A stretch of 64,000 nt of DNA from an uncultured Gemmatimonadales bacterium (GTDB taxonomy: Bacteria > Gemmatimonadota > Gemmatimonadetes > Longimicrobiales > RSA9): contig CAWCUS010000002.1 in the NCBI GenBank assembly GCA_963798845.1, positions 320,001 to 384,000 on the forward strand. The letters run 5' to 3'. A model generated the notes under the pieces. That model was given only the letters and a program-made list of their open reading frames with translations. It did no database searches and was not told the DNA's origin. This document shows positions 1 to 14,411 of the stretch, in pieces. Each line of letters starts with the position of its first letter. Within the stretch, counting starts at the first letter, position 1. A program made the position numbers and the translations under genes.

Positions 1-138
1 CTGGCCATGTCGCGCGGGACCCGGTTCCGGGTGGTCCCGGTTCGCGCGGGCGTGCTCGACATCTCCCGGCGCGAGGACATCCCCGCGCTCGAGCGCGTGC
101 TGGCCGGCGCCACCGGCGCGTGGAAGGAACCCGGCTGA
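1..138 (+). CDS. 3' end of an upstream gene, probably a sugar-phosphate nucleotidyltransferase (partial)
   Basis: Frame 1 is open from base 1 (LAMSRGTRFRVVPVRAGVLDISRREDIPALERVLAG...) to TGA at 136-138 and overlaps the kinase start. The VLDISRREDI tail resembles the C-terminal W-x-D-x-G segment of NTP transferases. Confidence 0.5.
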   Translation: MAMSRGTRFRVVPVRAGVLDISRREDIPALERVLAGATGAWKEPG

Positions 139-6630: not shown

Positions 6631-8019
6631 TCAGCTCCCGAACTCGTAGAGGGGCTCGAAGCGGGCGGTGAAGTGGCGCAGCACGGGCGCCTGGTGCGTG
6701 ATGCGGAATCCGCCGATGGACTCGCGCCGCCGGAACACCTCCAGGATCACCTCGATCACGTAGTCGATATGGCTCTGGGTGTAGACGCGGCGAGGGATCG
6801 TGAGTCGCACCAGCTCCGTGGGACCTGCCTCCTCCTCACCGGTTTCCGGGTCGCGCCGGCCGAACATGACCGTGCCGATCTCGACACCGCGGATCCCGCC
6901 CTCCACGTACAGCTCCGCCACGAGCGCCTGTCCCGGCAGGTGGAGCGGTTCCACGTGCGGGAGAAACGCGGCCGCGTCCAGGTACACGGCGTGGCCGCCC
7001 GGCGGCTGGATGATCGGCACGCCCTCACGCGCAATGTGCTCTCCCAGATAGCGGACGGAGGCGAGCCGATACTCCAGGTAGTCCTCCTGCACCACCTCGT
7101 CCAGCCCGACCGCGATCGCCTCCAGGTCGCGGCCCGCCAGGCCGCCGTAGGTGGGGAAGCCTTCCGTCAGGATCAGCAGGTCCTTTTCCTGCTCCGCCAG
7201 GCGGTCGTCGTTGGTCGCCACGAAGCCGCCTATGTTCGCCAGCCCGTCCTTCTTCGCGGAGAACGTGCAGCCGTCGGCGTAAGAGAACATCTCGTGCGCG
7301 ATCTCCTCGACGCTCCGTTCGTCCTGCCCCTCCTCGTTCCGCTTGATGAGATAGGCGTTCTCCGCGAACCGGCATGCGTCGATGTAGAACGGGATCCCGT
7401 GCTCGCGGCAGGTGGCGCTGATCTCCCGGATGTTCCCCAGGCTCACCGGCTGCCCGCCCCCCGAGTTGTTGGTCACCGTGACCATGCACAGCGGGATCCG
7501 CTCGGCACCCACCTCGCCGATCAGGCGACGCAGCGCGTCCACGTCCATGTCGCCCTTGAACGGCGCGGGCTGCTGCCGGTTCTTCGCCCGCGGGGTCGGA
7601 AGGTCCACGGCTTCGGCGCCGCGGGCCTCGATGTTCGCCCGCGTCGTGTCGAAGTGCGTGTTGTTCGGGACCACGTCCCCGGCCTTGCACATGGTGGTGA
7701 ACAGGATCCGCTCCGCCGCCCGCCCCTGGTGCGTCGGGATCAGGTGCTTGAATCCGAACAGCTCCTTCACCCGCCGCTCCAGCCGGTAGAAAGAGCGGGA
7801 CCCGGCGTAGGCCTCGTCCCCCCGCATGATCGCAGCCCACTGCTCCGCGCTCATCGCCGACGTCCCGCTGTCCGTCAGCAGGTCGATGAGCACGTTATCC
7901 GCCTTCAGCAGAAAGACGTTGTAGCCCGCCTCTTCCAGCCACTCCAGCCTCTCTCGGCGCGTGGTCATCCGGATCGGCTCCACCGCCTTGATCTTGAACG
8001 GCTCGATGATTGTTCTCAC
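6631..8019 (-). CDS. tnaA: Tryptophanase (beta-eliminating lyase)
   Basis: GTG start RTIIEPFKIKAVE, DLLTDSGT, HQGRAAE, FSAKKDG (PLP Lys). C-terminal LRHFTARF carries the His typical of tryptophanase rather than the FF of tyrosine phenol-lyase. Confidence 0.88.
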   Translation of the reverse strand: MRTIIEPFKIKAVEPIRMTTRRERLEWLEEAGYNVFLLKADNVLIDLLTDSGTSAMSAEQWAAIMRGDEAYAGSRSFYRLERRVKELFGFKHLIPTHQGRAAERILFTTMCKAGDVVPNNTHFDTTRANIEARGAEAVDLPTPRAKNRQQPAPFKGDMDVDALRRLIGEVGAERIPLCMVTVTNNSGGGQPVSLGNIREISATCREHGIPFYIDACRFAENAYLIKRNEEGQDERSVEEIAHEMFSYADGCTFSAKKDGLANIGGFVATNDDRLAEQEKDLLILTEGFPTYGGLAGRDLEAIAVGLDEVVQEDYLEYRLASVRYLGEHIAREGVPIIQPPGGHAVYLDAAAFLPHVEPLHLPGQALVAELYVEGGIRGVEIGTVMFGRRDPETGEEEAGPTELVRLTIPRRVYTQSHIDYVIEVILEVFRRRESIGGFRITHQAPVLRHFTARFEPLYEFGS

Positions 8020-8224
8020 GTCTCTGCTCTGCTGCCCGGTGCCAAGATCACCCCGGCCGGATGCTGGCCGCTTCCGCCCCCGCTCGCAACCCCCGGCACC
8101 GCTCGAACCTGGCGCCGGACCCGAACGTCGCTCTTGCGGCTCACGCCGCGCGAGAGCCACCTTCTTCCCCGAGCGGTGGCCGGGCGCGCCTGCTCGCGCC
8201 GCTGCAGCACTTCCGAGAAGAGTC

Positions 8225-9088
8225 ATGGCAGTCTGGTATTTCGGAAAGCCGACGATCCCGCTCACCGGCCTCGTCCTCTCCTTCGCTGCGCTCCTCGTCC
8301 CGATCGTCGCCACGTTCTGGTTTCCGGACGGCGCCACCCAGTACCAGCTCCTCCTGTGGCTCCTCGCCCTGATCCCGGCCTTCCTGCTGGCCCATTACCG
8401 GGGTTGGATGGGCGTGGCCGTGGCCATGCTCATCGGCATGGTGGTACTCTCGATGGCCCAGGTGGCCGCCGTCTCCACCGGCCTGCACACCGACTGGGCG
8501 CTGCTGCTCGGCGTGGTCGCGGTCTACATCGCCGTCGGGATGAGCGTGGGCGTGGTCAGCGAGCTGCTGCACGTGGAGCGGGCCCGGGCGGAAGAGCTGG
8601 CCCTTACCGACGGGCTTACGGACATGCCCAACCGGCGCCTGGCCGACCTCTTCCTGGAAAAGGAGTTCGCCGCGGCACAGCGCGGACGCCCTCTCGCCGT
8701 CGTGCTCTACGACATCGACTACTTCAAGGCGTTCAACGACCGTCACGGCCACTCGGCCGGCGACGGAGCGCTCCGGTTCTTTGCAGACACGCTCAGGTCC
8801 CGCACCCGGCGCATGGACCTCTCCGCACGGTACGGCGGCGAGGAGTTCATCACCATCCTCTCTGCCGGTGCGACGCACGGCGCCGTCTGCCTGGCCGAAG
8901 CGGTGCGCTCGAGGCTCGCGGACCACCCGCACCACCTCCCGTTCACCGTCTCCGCCGGCGTGGCCGAGTACACGGACGGGATGGAGTCGCAAATGGAGCT
9001 GCTGACCGCAGCGGACCGCGCCCTCTACGCGGCCAAGTCGGATGGCCGCGACTGCGTGCGGGCGTACCAGGAGGTCGCTCCGGTCTGA
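8225..9088 (+). CDS. Membrane-anchored diguanylate cyclase (GGDEF)
   Basis: About 4 N-terminal TM helices, TDGLTDMPNRR, DIDYFKAFND, RMDLSARYGGEEF, ADRALYAAK. Confidence 0.92.
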   Translation: MAVWYFGKPTIPLTGLVLSFAALLVPIVATFWFPDGATQYQLLLWLLALIPAFLLAHYRGWMGVAVAMLIGMVVLSMAQVAAVSTGLHTDWALLLGVVAVYIAVGMSVGVVSELLHVERARAEELALTDGLTDMPNRRLADLFLEKEFAAAQRGRPLAVVLYDIDYFKAFNDRHGHSAGDGALRFFADTLRSRTRRMDLSARYGGEEFITILSAGATHGAVCLAEAVRSRLADHPHHLPFTVSAGVAEYTDGMESQMELLTAADRALYAAKSDGRDCVRAYQEVAPV

Positions 9089-9122
9089 AGGCCGCGGCGG
9101 CGCGCCCGCCGACACGTGCTGC

Positions 9123-9151
9123 TTGACATGCCGGAGGGTCCTCCCGAGAGT
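9123..9151 (+). promoter_or_regulatory. Putative sigma-70 promoter of the leader/metal-uptake operon
   Basis: TTGACA (9123-9128), 17-bp spacer, GAGAGT (9146-9151). The implied start site falls near ATG 9159, so the mRNA may be leaderless. Confidence 0.4.
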
Positions 9152-9158
9152 CCACGCC

Positions 9159-9488
9159 ATGCCCCTGCAATCCAGGCCAGCGCGTCGGATCGTCGCTTTC
9201 GTGGTGGCGGTGCTCCTTGGCACTTCCCTGCTGGCCGTGCCGCTGCTGGACCTGGGCCGCGCGCCCCGCCGGCTCGCCATCGACGCGAAGCCGACGCAGC
9301 CCGGCTGGCTCGCCCACGATCACGACCTCTGCCTCTGGTTCGGGGCCACACCCTGGGCGCCGCCGCCCTCGCCGCCGCCCCCCGCCACCCTGCGCGTGCA
9401 CCAGGCGACCGTCATCATCGAGAGCGCCGTACCTGGCGAGCTCCTCCTCCAGCCGACCTACCGCTCCAGAGCACCACCCACCGCCTGA
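9159..9488 (+). CDS. Small exported leader protein, DUF2946-like, with C-terminal RAPP motif
   Basis: 109 aa: basic N-terminus plus hydrophobic helix (RRIVAFVVAVLLGTSLLAVPLL), HDHDLC motif, Pro-rich linker, ends YRSRAPPTA*. Lies directly upstream of metal transport genes. Confidence 0.72.
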   Translation: MPLQSRPARRIVAFVVAVLLGTSLLAVPLLDLGRAPRRLAIDAKPTQPGWLAHDHDLCLWFGATPWAPPPSPPPPATLRVHQATVIIESAVPGELLLQPTYRSRAPPTA

Positions 9489-9554
9489 AGCCTGGCTTCG
9501 GGCCCCACGCCGCCGCCGGCGAGGGGATGATCACGCACATCGGTGGAGGACCCG

Positions 9555-10946
9555 TTGACAAGGATTCCAAGACGACGTTGCGGCGTCGCCCGGCTCGCCA
9601 TTCCGTTCGCGTGCATCGCGCTGCTTCCTCCCACGGCCGCTTCCGCGCAGGAGCCGGCGAGGGAGCCGGCGCGGCAGGCGGTGATCGACTCGCTGCGGCG
9701 GGAAGTCGACCACGTCCGGGCGCAGATGGACAGCCTCACGCGTGTGGTGCGCGCGCTCCAGGCAGCGCCGCCGGCCGGGGCCGCGGAGGGCGGCCAGACA
9801 CCCGAGGACCCCCTGGCCGCGATCCGGTCCGCGGCCGCCGCGGCGGCCGGAGGCGCGCAGGACACCGCGGCCGCGGCTCCGGAGAAGGAGCCGGAGCAGC
9901 CGGAGTTCGTCGGCCGCCAGCGCAATCTCCAGGCGCTGAACCCGGAGCTGACGGTCACGGGTGACCTGTTCGGTTTCATGGACATGGACGATCCCGGGCA
10001 CCGGTCGTTCGTGGCGCGGGAGATCGAGGTAGGCTTCCAGTCAAGCCTCGACCCGTACGCGCTGGCCAAGGTCAACGTCAGCTTCGGCCAACCGGGTGGC
10101 GACCTGGCTCCGTTCGAGAACCCGGACGCGCCCGAAGAGGGGCCGGAAGTCTCGGCCGAGGAGGCGTACATCGAATGGACGGGGCTGCCGGGCGGCGTGA
10201 ACGTCATGCTCGGCCGCTTCCGCCAGCGCTTCGGTCAGCTCAACCGGTGGCACCCCCACGCCCTCCCCGGACAGAGCTTCCCGCTTCCCTACGTCGCCTT
10301 CTTCGGCGAGGAAGGGCTGGCGGAGACCGGCATCTCGGTGCACTGGCTCGTCCCGGTCACCGGCGCGGGCACGTGGGAAGTGTGGACGCAGCTCACGAAC
10401 AGTGGCAACGACGTCCTGTTCGGCGGCGCCAGCCGACCCGCGGCGCTCGCCCACCTGAACGCGTTCTGGGACCTGACTCGGTCCACGTACTTCGAGCTCG
10501 GGTTCACTGGCCTGGCCGGTCCCGACTGGGCCGGAGACCGCGACTTCGCGACCCGCGTGGGCGGCCTGGACTTCACCCTGAGCTGGAGGCCGCCGGAGCG
10601 CGGCCACTATCGCGAGCTGACCATCCGCGGCGGCGCGGTGCTGGGCGAGGTCGCCACCGGCGGCGCGCTGGAGCCCGACCCCGGCAGCGCCCGTGGCGCG
10701 TTCGCCAACGCCGAGTACCGCCTGAACCCGCGCTGGCTGGTCGGCGGGCGCTGGGGCTGGACCGAGGACCCGCTCGACCCATCGCGGTCGACCTGGCTCG
10801 CCGCGCCCACGCTCACGCTCTGGGAAAGCGAGTTCGTCCGCCTTCGCGCCGAGATGGACTTCCTGCACCGGCCCGAGGGCACGCTCCGTCAGCTCACGCT
10901 CCAGACCACGTTCGCCATGGGGCCCCACAAGCACGAGACCTACTGA
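9555..10946 (+). CDS. Outer-membrane beta-barrel receptor/porin associated with metal uptake
   Basis: GGAGGA RBS plus TTG 9555, signal peptide ending ASA|Q, coiled coil, NPELTVTGD, REIEVGFQSSLDPY, GQLNRWHPH, His-containing C-terminus GPHKHETY. Confidence 0.75.
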   Translation: MTRIPRRRCGVARLAIPFACIALLPPTAASAQEPAREPARQAVIDSLRREVDHVRAQMDSLTRVVRALQAAPPAGAAEGGQTPEDPLAAIRSAAAAAAGGAQDTAAAAPEKEPEQPEFVGRQRNLQALNPELTVTGDLFGFMDMDDPGHRSFVAREIEVGFQSSLDPYALAKVNVSFGQPGGDLAPFENPDAPEEGPEVSAEEAYIEWTGLPGGVNVMLGRFRQRFGQLNRWHPHALPGQSFPLPYVAFFGEEGLAETGISVHWLVPVTGAGTWEVWTQLTNSGNDVLFGGASRPAALAHLNAFWDLTRSTYFELGFTGLAGPDWAGDRDFATRVGGLDFTLSWRPPERGHYRELTIRGGAVLGEVATGGALEPDPGSARGAFANAEYRLNPRWLVGGRWGWTEDPLDPSRSTWLAAPTLTLWESEFVRLRAEMDFLHRPEGTLRQLTLQTTFAMGPHKHETY

Positions 10947-10965: not shown

Positions 10966-12033
10966 ATGATGATCCTGAACCTGGCCATGGCGCTGGCCGT
11001 CACGCTGTCCCCGCCGCCCCAACAGGGCGCGGCCTCCCAACAGGGCCTGGCACCCCATGCTGGGGCCAGGCCCCTCCGCGTCGTCGCCACCCTCCCCGTC
11101 TACGCCGAGCTTGTGCGCACCATCGCCGGTGACGCGGCGGAGGTCACGGCCATCGCCGATCCCGCGGAGGACGCGCATTTCGTACGACCCAAGCCCAGCT
11201 TCGCGCTGCGGATCCGGCAGGCGGACGCGTTCGTGACCACGGGCCTCGACCTCGAGCTCTGGGTCCCGGCGCTCCTGGACAAGGCGGGGAACGCGAAGGT
11301 GAAGGAGGGTGGAACCGGCTACATCACGACGTATCCCGGGGTCAGGCTCCTGGACGTCCCGACGTCGCACGACCGGTCCCAGGGCGACATCCACATCTAC
11401 GGCAATCCGCACCTGTTCACGGACCCGCTGAACGTGCTCCAGATAGCCCGGAACATCACGGCGGGGCTGAAGAACGTTGACCCGCAGGACGCGGCCACGT
11501 TCGACGCCAACATGGCCGCGTACGCGGAACGGGTCTATCGGCGCCTGTATGGCGATGCGCTCGTTGAGCTGCTGGGCGGCCCGACGCTCGAGAAGCTGAG
11601 CCAGCAGGGCAGGCTCTTCGACTTCCTGTCCGGCCAGGAGTACGGGGGACAGCCGCTCACCGCGCAGCTCGGCGGGTGGCTGAAAGCCGCCGAGCCGTTC
11701 CGCGGCAGGAAGATCGTCTGCTACCACAAGAACTGGGCGTACTTCGAGAACCGGTTCGGCGTCACGTGCGCCGACTATGTCGAGGCCAAGCCAGGGATCC
11801 CGCCCACTCCCGGCCACGTCGGCGACCTCATCGACCTCATGAAGAACCAGGGAATCAACGTGCTTCTCGCCGCGAACTACTTCGACCCCGCGAAAGTGAA
11901 GGCGGTGGCCGCCCGCGCCGGCGGGAGCGCGGTCATCGTGCCGCTCCAGCCGGGCGGCCCGCGCGCCGCCACGTACTTCGACGTGGTGGACACGTGGGTC
12001 AACTCCCTGGCCGCCGCCTTCAGGGGGAGCTGA
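10966..12033 (+). CDS. Metal ABC transporter substrate-binding protein (ZnuA/TroA cluster A-I)
   Basis: VVATLPVY, EDAHF, GLDLELW, DIHIYGNPHLFTDP, YHKNWAYF and EAKPGIPPTPGH motifs. Confidence 0.9.
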   Translation: MMILNLAMALAVTLSPPPQQGAASQQGLAPHAGARPLRVVATLPVYAELVRTIAGDAAEVTAIADPAEDAHFVRPKPSFALRIRQADAFVTTGLDLELWVPALLDKAGNAKVKEGGTGYITTYPGVRLLDVPTSHDRSQGDIHIYGNPHLFTDPLNVLQIARNITAGLKNVDPQDAATFDANMAAYAERVYRRLYGDALVELLGGPTLEKLSQQGRLFDFLSGQEYGGQPLTAQLGGWLKAAEPFRGRKIVCYHKNWAYFENRFGVTCADYVEAKPGIPPTPGHVGDLIDLMKNQGINVLLAANYFDPAKVKAVAARAGGSAVIVPLQPGGPRAATYFDVVDTWVNSLAAAFRGS

Positions 12034-12036
12034 GCC

Positions 12037-12915
12037 ATGTTGTCGCTGATCCTCGCACCCCTCGCCGTCGGGCTGGTGATCGTGGCCATGAACGCGTATT
12101 TCGGGCTCCACATCATCCGCCGCGGCGTCATCTTCGTGGACCTGGCCTTCGCCCAGATCGCCGCGGTCGGAAGCACCATCGCGCTCCTGTTCGGCGCCCA
12201 CATCGGCACGCCGATCTCGTGGGCCCTCACCTTCCTGTTCACCCTGGTGGGGGCCGCGATCTTCAGCTTCACCCGCAGCGAGCAGGAGACGCTCGTGCCG
12301 CAGGAGGCGATCATCGGCATCGTCTACGTCGTGGCCTCCGCGACGGTGATCCTCCTCACCAGCTTCACGGCGGAAGGGGCTGAGCACGTGAAGGAGACAC
12401 TCACCGGCTCGCTCATCTGGGCGACGTGGGGCACGTTCGGCGTCGTCGCCGCGGCGTACGCCGCCATCGGCCTCTTCCACTTCTTCACGCGGGAGAAGAT
12501 GCGCGCGGTCACGTTCCACCCGGAGCGCGTGCGCCGGATTCGCTTGTGGGACTTCATCTTTTATCTCACTTTCGGCATCGCCATCACCTTCTCCGTGACA
12601 CTCGCGGGTGTTCTCCTCATCTTCAGCACGCTCGTGATCCCGTCGGTGATCGCGTTCACGTTCACCGGCCGTTTCAATCGAGCACTGTTGATCGCCTGGG
12701 CCAGCGGGGCCGTCGCCCTCGTGGCGGGGCTCCTCGGGTCCGTGTACTGGGACGTCACCACCGGGCCGCTGCTGGTGGTGGCGTTCGGCGTCGCGCTCGT
12801 CCTGGCCTTCGTGGCGAGGCCGCTGCTCGGCATTCAGAAGCCCGCGCCCCTCAGCCACCTGCGCGAGGAGCCGGGCCCCGTGATTCACCCGCGAGACCCT
12901 GTGAGTCAGACCTGA
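12037..12915 (+). CDS. Metal ABC transporter permease (ZnuB/ABC-3 family)
   Basis: GLHIIRRGVIFVDLAFAQIAAVG, QEAIIGIVY, GVLLIFSTLVIP, about 8 TM helices. Confidence 0.88.
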   Translation: MLSLILAPLAVGLVIVAMNAYFGLHIIRRGVIFVDLAFAQIAAVGSTIALLFGAHIGTPISWALTFLFTLVGAAIFSFTRSEQETLVPQEAIIGIVYVVASATVILLTSFTAEGAEHVKETLTGSLIWATWGTFGVVAAAYAAIGLFHFFTREKMRAVTFHPERVRRIRLWDFIFYLTFGIAITFSVTLAGVLLIFSTLVIPSVIAFTFTGRFNRALLIAWASGAVALVAGLLGSVYWDVTTGPLLVVAFGVALVLAFVARPLLGIQKPAPLSHLREEPGPVIHPRDPVSQT

Positions 12916-14411
12916 TGAACCAGACGCGATTCCTGCGGGCGGTGCTGCCCGCCCTCCTCGTCCTTCCGGCGACACTGGGCGTCGCCGGCACCGCGGCCGC
13001 CCAGAGCGGGGCCGCGACCCCGCCCCCGGCGACCGCCCCGGCCCCCCCAGCCGCCCCGGGGTCGGCGGCCGCGCGTGGGTCGGCCGTGGCCGCGGCTCCG
13101 ACAGCGCGGGCGACCGGCCTCGTCTCCGCGTACCAGGAGCCGGCCGACCGTCTCATCGACGCCGCGTTGAGGGACAGCGCCGCGTACGAGCGGCTGGGGG
13201 ACCTGGTCGACACGTTCGGCCCCCGTCTGAGCGGCTCGCGTGCGCTCGAGGACGCCATCGACTGGGTCATGGCGCGCATGAAGGAGGACGGGCTGGAGAA
13301 CGTGCACGGCGAGAAGGCGATGGTGCCGCACTGGGTTCGCGGAGAGGAATCGCTGCGCATGACGCAGCCCAGGGAGCGGGACCTGCCGATGCTCGGGCTC
13401 GGCGGCAGCATCGCCACGCCGCCCGGCGGGATCACGGCGCCCGTTCTCGTGGTCTCCAGCTTCGACGAGCTGCACCAGCGCGCGGCGGAGGCCAGAGGGA
13501 AGATCGTCCTCTTCGACGCCCCGTTCGTCACGTACGGCGAGACGGTCCGCTACCGGAGCGACGGGGCCGTGGAGGCGGCGAAAGCGGGCGCGGTGGCCAG
13601 CCTGATCCGGTCCGTGGCGTCGTTCTCGATGAACAGCCCTCATACGGGCGCCATGGACTACGAGGACAGCGTCACGAAGATCCCGCACGCTGCCATCACG
13701 GTGGAGGACGCCGAGATGCTGCACCGGATGCAGGAGCGAGGCGTCACCCCGGTGCTGCACCTGGAGATGAGCGCGGAGACGCTCCCCGACTCGCCGTCCC
13801 GCAACGTGATCGCCGAGATCCGGGGGCGGGAGAAGCCGGACGAGGTGGTGGTGGTGAGCGGGCACCTCGACTCGTGGGACGTGGGGCAGGGCGCGATGGA
13901 CGACGGGGGCGGGGTCGTCGCCGCGTGGCAGGCCGTGCGGCTCATGAAGGAGCTGGGCATGCGCCCGCGCCGGACCGTGCGTGTCGTCGCCTGGACCAAC
14001 GAGGAGAACGGGACCCGGGGCGGCCGCGCCTACGCCGCCGACCACGCCGATCAGGCCGGCAGCCACGTCCTCATGATCGAATCCGATGAGGGCGTTTTCC
14101 GCCCCGAGGGCTTCGGCTTCACCGGCTCCGATTCGGCGTTCCAGGTGGTGCAGGCCGTCGGCAGGCTCCTCGCCCGCATCGACGCCGGCGAGATCACCCG
14201 CGGCGGCGGCGGCGCCGACATCGGCCCGATGATGCGCCTCGGCGTTCCCGGCATGGGGCTCACGGTGGACGGCGAGAAGTACTTCTGGTACCACCACAGC
14301 GAAGCGGACACGCTCGACAAGCTGGATCCGGAGGAGATGGCCCGCTGCGTCGCGGCGCTGGCGGTCATGAGCTACGTCGTCGCGGACATGCCGGAGAAGC
14401 TGCCGCGGTGA
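12915..14411 (+). CDS. Secreted M28 zinc peptidase (carboxypeptidase Q-like)
   Basis: ATG overlaps the permease stop (TGATG). Signal peptide, GPRLSGS, SGHLDSWDVGQGAMDDGGG, TNEENG, ESDEG, YFWYHHSEADT. Confidence 0.92.
   Translation: MNQTRFLRAVLPALLVLPATLGVAGTAAAQSGAATPPPATAPAPPAAPGSAAARGSAVAAAPTARATGLVSAYQEPADRLIDAALRDSAAYERLGDLVDTFGPRLSGSRALEDAIDWVMARMKEDGLENVHGEKAMVPHWVRGEESLRMTQPRERDLPMLGLGGSIATPPGGITAPVLVVSSFDELHQRAAEARGKIVLFDAPFVTYGETVRYRSDGAVEAAKAGAVASLIRSVASFSMNSPHTGAMDYEDSVTKIPHAAITVEDAEMLHRMQERGVTPVLHLEMSAETLPDSPSRNVIAEIRGREKPDEVVVVSGHLDSWDVGQGAMDDGGGVVAAWQAVRLMKELGMRPRRTVRVVAWTNEENGTRGGRAYAADHADQAGSHVLMIESDEGVFRPEGFGFTGSDSAFQVVQAVGRLLARIDAGEITRGGGGADIGPMMRLGVPGMGLTVDGEKYFWYHHSEADTLDKLDPEEMARCVAALAVMSYVVADMPEKLPR

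Follow-up and report, generated by a model that had tools for sequence, protein, structure and literature searches.

A RAPP-terminated leader peptide with an HDHxxC motif, probably a non-copper relative of CruR and CutF, ahead of an apparently zinc-type import operon in Gemmatimonadota

The exported leader peptide SecM of Escherichia coli arrests its ribosome, which exposes the downstream ribosome binding site (RBS), until a pulling force on the nascent chain relieves the arrest. Its arrest sequence is of RAGP type, and it is a monitor of secretion, not of metal, without a His/Cys sensor. To our knowledge, copper is so far the only metal for which sensing by the nascent peptide of a stalled ribosome has been documented, in CruR and CutF.

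CruR (Bp2923 of Bordetella pertussis, the PF11162 prototype) is encoded by the small first gene of a metal-transport operon, with a long intergenic gap before the next gene, and carries an export signal at its N-terminus. In this protein of 145 residues a CXXC motif stands exactly 45 residues before a C-terminal RAPP, and the stop codon follows after a three-residue tail. In the published account this separation is conserved to within 1-2 residues, the addition of five residues impairs copper control, and copper relieves the stall such that Rho termination becomes possible; its authors locate the sensing of copper in the cytoplasm and describe the signal peptide as dispensable (PMC9426467). 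The range given there takes in beta-, gamma- and alpha-Proteobacteria and a few Planctomycetes, Firmicutes and Deinococcus, with Gemmatimonadota not included (PMC9426467). CutF of Rhodobacter capsulatus (PMC9973294) is likewise described as a nascent exported sensor of DUF2946 type, with a stall close to its C-terminus that opens a stem-loop over the next RBS and with periplasmic sensing proposed to occur during co-translational secretion (bioRxiv 10.1101/2025.02.05.636593). Its motifs are reported to be CXXXC and an EF-P-sensitive PPP, and copper is said to induce the stall, melting the stem-loop over the cutO RBS and so switching on a detoxifying oxidase (bioRxiv 10.1101/2025.02.05.636593). 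Both regulatory polarities are therefore documented in the known family.

RAPP and RGPP are reported to cause robust arrest refractory to EF-P and to show enrichment toward the C-terminal end of small proteins, secreted or membrane-bound, whose genes lie upstream of metal genes (PMC12992588). ApcA, ApdA, ApdP and seven Streptomyces lividans peptides are described as small secreted or membrane proteins with a C-terminal RAPP upstream of a regulated gene (PMC12992588; PMC10951233), and SLIV_16130 also has conserved Cys/His residues and a metal-related downstream gene (PMC12992588).

The ApdA/ApdP-class layout, a small protein with a predicted N-terminal helix and RAPP near its C-terminus encoded upstream of other genes, is present in the window (the whole 64,000-nucleotide stretch that was analysed) as follows:

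9125 to 9153, plus strand: promoter-like element read from the sequence, TTGACA (9125-9130), 17 nt, GAGAGT (9148-9153), then 7 nt to the ATG
9159 to 9488, plus strand: leader peptide gene, ATG 9159 to TGA 9486-9488, 109 codons plus TGA
9174 to 9251, plus strand: codons 6-31, AF2-predicted hydrophobic helix with the conserved VPLLD at its end, candidate signal peptide or N-in/C-out anchor
9315 to 9332, plus strand: HDHDLC, putative metal-binding sensor by motif conservation, residues 53-58 (H53, D54, H55, C58)
9333 to 9467, plus strand: 45-residue spacer, kept in length and not in sequence
9468 to 9479, plus strand: RAPP arrest motif by motif conservation, residues 104-107, AGA GCA CCA CCC
9480 to 9488, plus strand: two-codon tail ACC GCC plus the TGA stop
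9489 to 9554, plus strand: intergenic region with predicted hairpins (RNA folding) and the Shine-Dalgarno (SD) sequence GGUGGAGGA (9542-9550)

Like CruR, the leader is encoded by what appears to be the first gene of a metal-homeostasis operon: a promoter-like element lies directly upstream of it and an intergenic gap of 66 nt behind it. The likeness extends to the 45 residues between metal motif and RAPP. The leader differs in having HDHxxC with a single Cys in place of CXXC, in its length (109 aa) and two-residue tail, in its cargo (a porin, a ZnuA-like protein and an ABC-3 permease, where CruR has a TonB copper transporter and PepSY_TM) and, probably, in a metal other than copper. It differs from CutF in carrying RAPP, and its importer cargo would be expected to require the opposite polarity. 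The N-terminal parts of ApcA, ApdA, ApdP and the S. lividans peptides, and the hosts in which they are described, are different again.

A leader family of fixed geometry

The leader opens with a basic N-terminus, MPLQSRPARR, that runs into the hydrophobic stretch modelled as a helix over residues 6-31 (pLDDT 91-97). An earlier note on this DNA had read here a 109-aa ORF with a hydrophobic helix, HDHDLC, a Pro-rich spacer and RAPP two codons before the stop, and the sequence agrees; the Pro-rich part, APPPSPPPPA, stands directly after HDHDLC. GC content at the three codon positions of this frame (0.70/0.63/0.87) resembles that of adjacent genes. A longer version starting at ATG 9042 (148 aa) was rejected: in the closest relative a stop codon stands shortly before the common MPL start, and the first 11 loci found all have an ATG that yields 109-114 aa.

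Pfam and NCBIfam gave no usable match to the leader. Of 61 genomes searched with the single protein, 10 besides its own contain full-length homologues in which the motifs described above keep their register, which argues that the ORF is more than a chance reading frame. A profile search of the phylum, in which no more than 12 candidates per genome were scored, found matches in at least 39 of 401 genomes. At E<=0.001 the family comprises 353 cluster representatives, of which 133 also pass E<=1e-10. As judged from these searches, the leader is a member of a real, tightly built gene family of the phylum Gemmatimonadota.

The conservation check that the earlier note had suggested came out in its favor: the ORF, H.H..C and RAPP are kept upstream of orthologous operons, and the idea that HxHxxC has taken the place of CxxC is borne out by the family as a whole: H.H..C together with R[AGS]PP is present in 161 of the 165 proteins examined. 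The sensor in these 161 is HDH (138), HNH (13) or HHH (8), and the arrest motif is RAPP (147), RSPP (8) or RGPP (6). Across 75 sequences H53, C58, R104, P106 and P107 do not vary, and conservation of H55 reaches at least 90%; in the family alignment P28 is also invariant and L30/D31 are conserved. The spacer from sensor to RAPP measures 45 residues in 139 of the 161 proteins, 44 in 10 and 46 in 12 (and 45 in 11/11 of the loci found first), but its mean pairwise identity is 16.5%, which indicates that it is the length rather than the sequence that is kept. From the helix end to the sensor there are 22 residues in 112 of 154 proteins, the tail after RAPP is two residues long in 138/161, and the leader stop codon is TGA in 37 of 45 loci.

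The description of the sensor as His-rich did not survive, since that of the present leader consists of two His, one Asp and one Cys only. A richer sensor, ESEHDPxxC...HDHxxC, occurs in other families of the phylum and in most other members, and its upstream half, ESEHDPxxC, is absent from the leader at 9159-9488. The leader of genome G027 has an intermediate motif, HDHMACQFC.

The proposal that this is a variant of the DUF2946/CruR type stood in part. What failed was recognition by the Pfam model: hmmscan with PF11162 (DUF2946) gave no match to the leader at E<=1, and in a six-frame search of its own genome the leader ORF was the best match at 12.1 bits (E 0.89), below the gathering cut-off of 23.7 bits. 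Within the family, the model picks up only 2 of the 75 members at a threshold of E<=0.01, and the conserved CXXC is absent from the leader, which has HDHDLC instead. What stood was the relationship to CxxC-type leaders of the same phylum. The 75 members aligned with 10 of these, 3 of which pass the PF11162 cut-off, over 108 columns at 97.4% probability (hhalign, E 1.5e-11), and PF11162 is found on 13% of the 206 members of a neighbouring Atlas cluster. Kinship of the His-type leader with CruR-type leaders is thus supported by the identical 45-residue spacing and by the profile alignment, and the leader is probably a relative of the copper sensors CruR and CutF that itself would respond to another metal.

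The downstream operon and its relatives

Behind the leader the operon continues with four genes:

9555 to 10946, plus strand: porin-like outer-membrane beta-barrel, 463 aa, with an N-terminal coiled coil (AF2 and Foldseek)
10966 to 12033, plus strand: ZnuA-like substrate-binding protein of cluster A-I, into which about 50 residues are inserted (PF01297 matched in two stretches, 2.6e-49)
12037 to 12915, plus strand: divergent ABC-3 (ZnuB-like) permease (PF00950, 8.9e-21, 75 bits)
12915 to 14411, plus strand: PA-domain-containing M28 peptidase, start codon ATG overlapping the ZnuB-like stop (TGATG)

The first of these had been taken for an outer-membrane receptor, and this had to be revised. The protein matches no Pfam or NCBIfam family and has no Plug or TonB-receptor domain; its AF2 model (pLDDT 81) finds porins as its best Foldseek matches (5mdo at 2.8e-11, Omp32, OprB, OmpM1, DcaP, OprP) and resembles 16-18-strand porins, not the 22-strand TonB-dependent barrel. 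On the strength of the model, the gene at 9555-10946 encodes a porin and not a TonB receptor. It has two conserved His motifs, NRWHxHALP and a C-terminal GPHKHETY. The gap of 66 nt between leader and porin gene given in the earlier note holds if the start is TTG 9555, which has GGAGG five nt upstream; an alternative start at GTG 9543 would leave 54 nt. Elsewhere the leader is followed by a gap of 45-214 nt.

The ZnuA and ZnuB genes were correctly called. The best NCBIfam match of the ZnuA-like protein is AztC, below the AztC cut-off, and its best PDB match is the zinc-binding AdcA. All eight matches to its C-lobe (8/8) are zinc ZnuA proteins, with a His aligned to their FH/YH motif; a His at the third ligand position of the substrate-binding protein, as in ZnuA, is the ligand rule that we assume here. 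By these matches the operon's cargo appears to be zinc-type. The permease is distant from the canonical ABC-3 copy on contig 6 of the same genome, which scores 224 bits against PF00950 where the operon's permease scores 75. No ABC_tran ATPase was found among 99 downstream ORFs scanned in 34 loci, and the sole ABC-3-linked ATPase found belongs to the canonical znuA-znuC-znuB set on contig 6. The operon therefore shares with Zur-controlled znuABC a ZnuA-family binding protein and an ABC-3 permease, but differs from it in the missing ATPase gene, the porin in front, the divergent permease and the inserted loop in the binding protein. The M28 peptidase is probably co-translated with the permease, as its start overlaps the ZnuB-like stop; M28 homologues stand behind the operon in L016 and L022 only.

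Placement of the leader at a cluster A-I import system is only part of the picture. The porin-like/ZnuA/ABC-3 set follows the leader in 36 of 45 loci, but the same family also heads a TonB receptor in five and an RND efflux set, OEP-HlyD(-AcrB), in two (L023 and L083); the remaining 2/45 loci end before a downstream family can be assigned. Efflux calls for regulation of the opposite polarity, so no single simple logic can hold for the whole family.

A proposed arrest switch and its alternatives

On balance we favor the view that ORF 9159-9488, as the operon's first gene, codes for a CruR/CutF-like regulatory leader peptide rather than for a stable protein, and that this peptide serves as a metal-sensing arrest switch. 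The switch would probably be cis-acting, with the metal, probably zinc, sensed on the nascent exported chain. The gene, its motifs and their constant spacing, the synteny and the homology with CxxC-type leaders are observed; arrest, metal binding, the identity of the metal, the polarity and the RNA step are what we infer in the following scenario. The mRNA would probably start at or near the leader ATG, the N-terminal helix would bring the nascent chain to the Sec translocon, and the ribosome would arrest at RAPP with the stop codon two codons ahead. About 76 residues would then lie between the helix end and the peptidyl-transferase centre, and HDHxxC, 45 residues from RAPP, should just have cleared tunnel and translocon. 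Metal on H53/D54/H55/C58, most likely Zn(II) in view of a His/Asp/Cys set of ligands and a cargo of zinc type, would alter the force on the nascent chain or its fold and hence the life-time of the arrest. A long-lived stalled ribosome would cover the C-rich RAPP/stop region, which would free the G-rich SD of the porin gene and/or bar Rho from the transcript, such that the porin, ZnuA-like, ZnuB-like and M28 genes are expressed; when metal is plentiful the arrest would be released, the ribosome would terminate and the operon would be off.

The start of this scenario draws on the promoter-like element, from which a leaderless or nearly leaderless leader mRNA is predicted. The geometry TTGnnn-16..18-[TG]AnnnT-5..9-ATG, a looser pattern of our own, recurs in 27 of 45 loci. 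A sigma-70/terminator consensus scan of 8900-9700 returned 0 promoters and 0 terminators, the promoter-like element being missed because its second hexamer matches the consensus at 3/6 positions only. Among sequencing runs, two DNA data sets from one study were listed for this DNA, with shares of 0.31 and 0.25, and no RNA data set.

With regard to the RNA step, folding predicts a pairing between CCACC (9478-9482) and GGUGG (9542-9546). Over 39 loci the predicted pairing of the SD with the 34-nt RAPP/stop region averaged 0.58, against 0.21 for control windows in the same leader ORF, and was above control in 31; when the footprint was forced to be unpaired, SD pairing fell from 0.81 to 0.59. This counts against the alternative that the output of the same arrest leader is Rho-dependent termination as in CruR, with the stalled ribosome shielding a C-rich rut site and SD masking playing no role, as does the 66-nt gap, which is short for a rut site. 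We regard that alternative as possible, if somewhat doubtful; it has the reported precedent of CruR (PMC9426467), the C-rich stretch CCCCACGCCGCCGCC behind the leader stop, and intergenic gaps of 45-214 nt, too long for translational coupling. It also draws on the want of covariation support for the SD pairing: the middle base of the SD was not seen to vary in step with the wobble base of the first Pro codon (GGTGG in 1/12 CCA loci; GGAGG in 6/16 CCT loci vs 5/12 CCA loci). Given this result, the pairing may reflect no more than the general tendency of C-rich Pro codons to be complementary to a G-rich SD. Single-locus RNA folds were no better than shuffles (z -1.12, +0.51, -0.63), and SD release was not predicted for either of the two efflux loci. 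Rho termination and SD masking are not mutually exclusive outputs.

We consider it unlikely that copper, or another metal such as Ni, Co or Mn, takes the place of zinc as the signal, for three reasons: (i) with the second Cys lost and His/Asp gained, the ligand set has moved away from Cu(I); (ii) the substrate-binding protein is closest to zinc proteins, including at the third ligand position; and (iii) ZIP transporters have been added in two of the 36 porin/ZnuA/ABC-3 loci. A His-variant copper sensor would nevertheless be in keeping with all characterised relatives, and Cu is also bound by His and Cys. In addition, the L052 operon includes a Redoxin/AhpC-TSA gene, as cruR operons do, and a CxxC-type leader heads the same porin-ZnuA set in L077.

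A stable small membrane or periplasmic protein, such as an accessory subunit or metallochaperone of the transporter, with an RAPP that causes no regulatory stall, strikes us as quite improbable. A spacer of fixed length and such low identity fits a ruler rather than a fold, AF2 with a 75-sequence alignment gave helices 6-31 and 55-63 only (mean pLDDT 71.5) and no metal-site fold, and the family's cargoes (porin/ABC, TonB receptors, RND) are unrelated. These points outweigh, in our view, the conservation of sensor motif and helix expected of a functional protein and the conceivable need for unusual parts in an operon without an ATPase. DUF2946 proteins have, according to the literature, long been annotated as periplasmic (PMC4176598), whereas RAPP is reported to be strongly avoided in ordinary proteins (PMC12992588). 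Highly improbable, finally, is a constitutive arrest or a Sec/YidC monitor like SecM or ApdA/ApdP with a non-regulatory His/Cys motif: a candidate export signal is present and the first RAPP arrest peptides to be found are described as such monitors (PMC7897499, PMC10987492), but the downstream genes are for metal transport, not sec or yidC, and H53 and C58 never vary and keep a fixed distance from RAPP.

A more specific form of the metal-sensing arrest switch, which we put forward tentatively, is that this is the first nascent-chain sensor for a non-copper metal: periplasmic Zn(II) would bind HDHxxC as it emerges from the translocon, the fold or pull that results would release the RAPP arrest 45 residues behind it and turn porin/ZnuA/ZnuB import off, and the module would have been rewired to TonB receptors and inverted for RND efflux. 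Periplasmic sensing is not a given, considering that the CruR signal peptide is dispensable and sensing was placed in the cytoplasm in that case. If true, a His/Asp/Cys branch before zinc-type importers would make nascent-chain sensing a principle general for transition metals and add a post-transcriptional layer of zinc homeostasis beside Zur. In laboratory experiments the zinc-dependent folding of a small domain reportedly pulls a chain out of arrest, and the leader would be a natural counterpart. The 22-6-45-4-2 residue ruler offers a direct handle on the distance of the sensor from the peptidyl-transferase centre, and the His-motif porin and the ATPase-less ZnuA/ZnuB pair would be components, so far undescribed, of an uptake route in a phylum that has received little study. 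The text of the RAPP/RGPP study has 0 occurrences each of zinc, ZnuA and Gemmatimon and does not discuss H.H..C or a link to a ZnuA operon (PMC12992588). One member of the His-type family is a row in the source data of that study, where it stands upstream of a TonB receptor.

The leader and its conserved build

The element described here is a His-type branch of the CruR/CutF leaders in Gemmatimonadota that is invisible to the Pfam model and is mainly tied to a porin/ZnuA/ABC-3 uptake route. In the window, a reading of the sequence gives the following features:

9125-9161, + strand: promoter-like element, TTGACA-17-GAGAGT-7-ATG
9159-9488, + strand: leader ORF of 109 codons, ATG 9159 to TGA 9486-9488, with a basic N-terminus (MPLQSRPARR) and a hydrophobic stretch that ends with AVPLLD
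9315-9332, + strand: sensor motif HDHDLC, residues 53-58
between HDHDLC and RAPP: Pro-rich segment APPPSPPPPA
9468-9479, + strand: RAPP, the putative arrest motif, residues 104-107 (AGA GCA CCA CCC)

Two codons follow RAPP before the stop. The ORF, the HDHDLC motif, the Pro-rich spacer and the position of RAPP claimed in the earlier note are all borne out. A longer frame from ATG 9042 was rejected and the start placed at 9159, because in the closest relative a stop lies directly 5' of the shared MPL start and because an ATG giving 109-114 residues is present in all 11 loci of our first set. The 5' neighbour on the same strand, 70 nt from the leader ATG, is a gene for a membrane GGDEF diguanylate cyclase (7961-9088), a position that is not kept at the other leaders looked at. 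Promoter-like elements of the form TTGnnn-16..18-[TG]AnnnT stand 5-9 nt 5' of the leader ATG in 27 of the 45 loci examined (the first set of 11 and a second set of 34), a geometry that suggests translation of the leader from a leaderless mRNA. The promoter spacer of the window also holds an inverted repeat, GGAGGgtCCTCC (9136-9147), which is not kept in the other loci.

With the leader protein alone as query, 61 related genomes were searched in six frames, and near full-length homologues were recovered in 10 other genomes (the searched set included G016, G017 and G038, flagged as unpublished, on which no claim is based). The best match, in G001, is 69% identical to the window leader; further homologues are in G008, G013, G019, G036, G033, G026, G025 and G022, genomes that like G001 belong to the same family, and in G051, a genome of a second family of the order. 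All 11 copies share one build: an ATG start, H.H..C at 53-58, a two-residue tail and a TGA stop, and in every copy the Cys is separated from the RAPP Arg by exactly 45 residues. A profile of these 11 rows returned 20 proteins of 94-120 residues in a word-indexed search; none carries a Pfam domain in its precomputed annotation, and the few names given are those of hypothetical proteins from Gemmatimonadetes, Gemmatimonadota or Longimicrobiales bacteria. When 1.84 billion cluster representatives were searched exhaustively with a profile, 353 proteins matched at E<=0.001, 133 of them at E<=1e-10.

We examined 165 proteins (150 listed from the profile search, the proteins from the word-indexed search and the window's own), and H.H..C and R[AGS]PP occur together in 161. 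Of the four exceptions, one has a motif one residue longer, one is truncated, one has HDENVC and one has RAPR. Among the 161, the sensor begins with HDH in 138, HNH in 13, HHH in 8, and HSH and HYH in 1 each; the arrest motif is RAPP in 147, RSPP in 8 and RGPP in 6; the tail is 2 residues in 138; and the spacer is 45 residues in 139, 44 in 10 and 46 in 12. Since mean pairwise identity within the 45-residue spacer is 16.5%, it is the length of this segment that is kept and not its sequence. The gap from the helix end (PxLD/E) to the sensor is also regular, at 22 residues in 112 of 154. Many members beyond the window's own family carry a second upstream motif, ESEHDPxxC, which the window copy lacks. 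Across the phylum, a profile search in which only 12 candidates were scored per genome placed the H.H..C family in 39 of 401 genomes. When the in-silico test proposed in the earlier note was run, the ORF, H.H..C and RAPP proved to be kept upstream of orthologous operons.

Kinship with CruR-type leaders

The earlier note had related the leader to DUF2946, a claim that fails for the Pfam model and holds at the level of profile-profile comparison. PF11162 does not match the leader protein at E<=1, and its best six-frame match in the window's genome is this very ORF, at 12.1 bits and thus below the cut-off of 23.7; only 2 of 75 H.H..C members match at E<=0.01. In the ESM Atlas the leader is placed with Gemmatimonadota clusters whose proteins are 110-116 residues long; in one of these clusters, of 206 members, 13% carry PF11162. 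Classic CxxC-type leaders also occur in the phylum (5 of 201 genomes with a PF11162 match over the cut-off), and of the ten that we extracted, 7 have a 45-residue spacer and 3 have one of 43-44 residues. With hhalign, the 75 H.H..C members align to these ten over 108 columns at 97.4% probability (E 1.5e-11). In this register C58 faces the first Cys and H53 faces a conserved His five residues before it; if the register is instead set by distance from RAPP, H55-x-x-C58 coincides with C-x-x-C.

There is precedent for such fixed geometry. In CruR of Bordetella pertussis, CXXC and RAPP are separated by 45 residues, a spacing that varies by no more than 1-2 residues across more than 2000 proteins; copper control is weakened when five residues are added, and RAPP mutants lose downstream expression (PMC9426467). 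The window leader shares the 45-residue distance with CruR, whereas the replacement of one Cys by His is its own feature. The published range of the CruR family covers beta, gamma and alpha Proteobacteria with a few Planctomycetes, Firmicutes and Deinococcus (PMC9426467). We conclude that the H.H..C family is a divergent branch of CruR-kind leaders, beyond both that range and the Pfam model, in which His replaces one Cys. One leader (L039, G027:C51) has the sensor HDHMACQFC, a combination of the His and CxxC types, and it is possible that it represents an evolutionary intermediate between the two branches.

Literature on DUF2946, RAPP arrest peptides, zinc in relation to ribosome stalling, and CruR yielded only the copper work on CruR and CutF and a general RAPP survey. 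We found no paper that describes the H.H..C family or a zinc-responsive arrest peptide, and supplements may hold further rows. The text of the survey has zero occurrences of zinc, ZnuA, Gemmatimon or DUF2946; its source data include RAPP uORFs (CxxC-type for the most part) in front of genes that are annotated as zinc-regulated TonB-dependent receptors, an enrichment in front of 'carbohydrate porin' genes (at least 54 RAPP vs at least 5 AAPP), and at least one row that is an H.H..C family member (HDHTIC...SRAPP) before a TonB receptor (PMC12992588).

Genes behind the leader

The following genes stand downstream of the leader in the window:

9555-10946, + strand: porin-like gene, 463-467-aa product (AF2 fold, Foldseek)
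10966-12033: ZnuA-family gene, second after the leader (PF01297, 2.6e-49)
12037-12915: ABC-3 permease gene, next after the ZnuA-family gene (PF00950, 8.9e-21)
from 12915, + strand: M28/PA-domain peptidase gene, its ATG overlapping the permease stop (TGATG, 12913-12917)

The most likely start of the first gene is TTG 9555, with GGAGG five nt upstream, and with this start the 66-nt gap reported earlier is confirmed. Its description as an outer-membrane receptor did not hold. The protein has no Pfam family; its model (34 homologues aligned, mean pLDDT 81) is a beta-barrel after a long helix (36-70), and the top Foldseek ranks against the PDB are all porins (chitoporin 5mdo at 2.8e-11, then Omp32, OprB, OmpM1, DcaP and OprP). 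These matches, together with a neighbouring Atlas cluster in which 22% of members carry Porin_O_P, therefore identify a porin and not a TonB receptor. The protein also has an N-terminal coiled coil, homologues in Acidobacteriota and Nitrospirota Atlas clusters, and two conserved His motifs in its consensus (NRWHxHALP and a C-terminal GPHKHETY); the barrel may be a metal-selective outer-membrane channel.

The best PDB match of the binding protein is the zinc protein AdcA (5.8e-17), and each of the 8 PDB entries matched by its C-terminal lobe is a zinc ZnuA protein, with FHDAYGYF and FHPSWAYF of these proteins aligned to its YHKNWAYF; His at that position marks zinc-type and not manganese-type proteins. 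The M28 gene, from a family of zinc-dependent peptidases, is apparently co-translated with the uptake genes, judging by the overlap, and follows the operon in only 2 other loci. No ABC ATPase domain was found in the window pair or in 99 downstream ORFs of the second-set loci (those starting <=4.3 kb from the leader). A canonical znuA-ABC_tran-ABC-3 operon lies elsewhere in the same genome (L084, contig 6, 907142-910906), where the permease scores 224 bits vs 75 bits for the window copy. The window pair (10966-12915) may borrow the contig 6 ATPase or work without one. The genome also has two Fur-family genes elsewhere.

A homologue of the porin-like protein (46-82% identity) lies directly 3' of the leader in 9 of the 10 other first-set loci, followed by ZnuA and ABC-3 homologues where the contig continues. 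At the tenth (L023, G051:C53) the leader instead heads an RND efflux set (OEP, HlyD_D23, AcrB). In the second set, 27 of 34 loci have ZnuA and/or ABC-3 matches behind a 438-485-residue protein without a Pfam family, with a ZIP-family transporter gene appended behind the ABC-3 gene in L069 and L070. TonB-dependent receptors occur at five loci (L052, L064, L072, L081 and L082), in L052 (G051:C55) with a Redoxin/AhpC-TSA gene next; one locus (L083, G154:C71) has OEP-HlyD and one (L075) reaches the contig edge. Six of the 34 leaders have variant sensors: H.H...C in L074, L078 and L079, CxxC in L077 and L082, and CxxxxC in L083. Within G051 alone, the leader family heads both an OEP-HlyD-AcrB efflux operon and a TonB receptor operon. 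The efflux-linked members have a parallel in Caulobacter, where, according to a Zur-regulon table, the czrCBA RND genes are headed by CC2720, a DUF2946 protein (PMC4176598).

A candidate arrest switch and its output

RAPP and RGPP are reported to cause a robust arrest on which EF-P has no relieving effect; both are avoided in proteomes, enriched near the C-terminus of small secreted or membrane proteins, and the genes downstream of such proteins include TonB receptors, YcnI, PCuAC, PepSY and others (PMC12992588). The two studied relatives have opposite polarity: in CruR the stall is relieved by copper and Rho then terminates transcription (PMC9426467), whereas in CutF of Rhodobacter capsulatus the stall is induced by copper while the chain is being secreted co-translationally, and the stalled ribosome melts a stem-loop that covers the ribosome-binding site of cutO (bioRxiv 10.1101/2025.02.05.636593). 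For the H.H..C leader we infer ribosome arrest itself, as well as the metal sensed and the polarity. CruR polarity would be the sensible choice for an importer: the stall would persist and the operon would be on when metal is absent, and metal would release the stall and turn the operon off. Efflux operons would need the opposite polarity.

At the putative stall, about 76 residues separate the helix end from the peptidyl-transferase centre. The ribosome tunnel holds about 35 residues and the translocon 10-15, which would leave exposed the linker of about 22 residues together with the six-residue sensor, a geometry in line with sensing outside the membrane.

With regard to output, CCACC at 9478-9482 (Pro107/Thr108 codons) pairs with GGUGG at 9542-9546 in the Shine-Dalgarno (SD) of the porin-like gene in the minimum-energy fold of the window, a fold no better than those of shuffled sequences (z -1.12). 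Pairing was assessed at 39 of 45 loci; L063, L067, L071, L073, L075 and L077 were left out because the SD call was weak, the predicted downstream frame was short or a start was lacking. The mean probability that the SD is paired is 0.81, and that it pairs with the 34-nt RAPP/stop region is 0.58, as opposed to 0.21 when that region is swapped for other windows of the same leader ORF; the real value exceeds this control at 31 of the 39 loci. With the footprint forced unpaired, mean SD pairing is 0.59, and no SD release is predicted at the two efflux loci (L023, L083). Between the third base of the first Pro codon and the middle base of the SD there is no covariation, which counts against a designed pairing, and we therefore rate SD unmasking by a stalled ribosome as suggestive. 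The output may instead be of the Rho type described for CruR.

The codons of RAPP show a further regularity. At 29 of 45 loci the first Pro codon is CCT or CCA, whereas these two make up 17% of the 1187 Pro codons of the downstream genes, a descriptive comparison since the loci are related. Ala stands at its position in 38 loci, and in 24 of these it is encoded by GCA or GCT. Choice of tRNA, RNA structure or anti-SD pairing could explain these A/T-ending codons (9471-9476 in the window), which stand in high-GC3 genomes.
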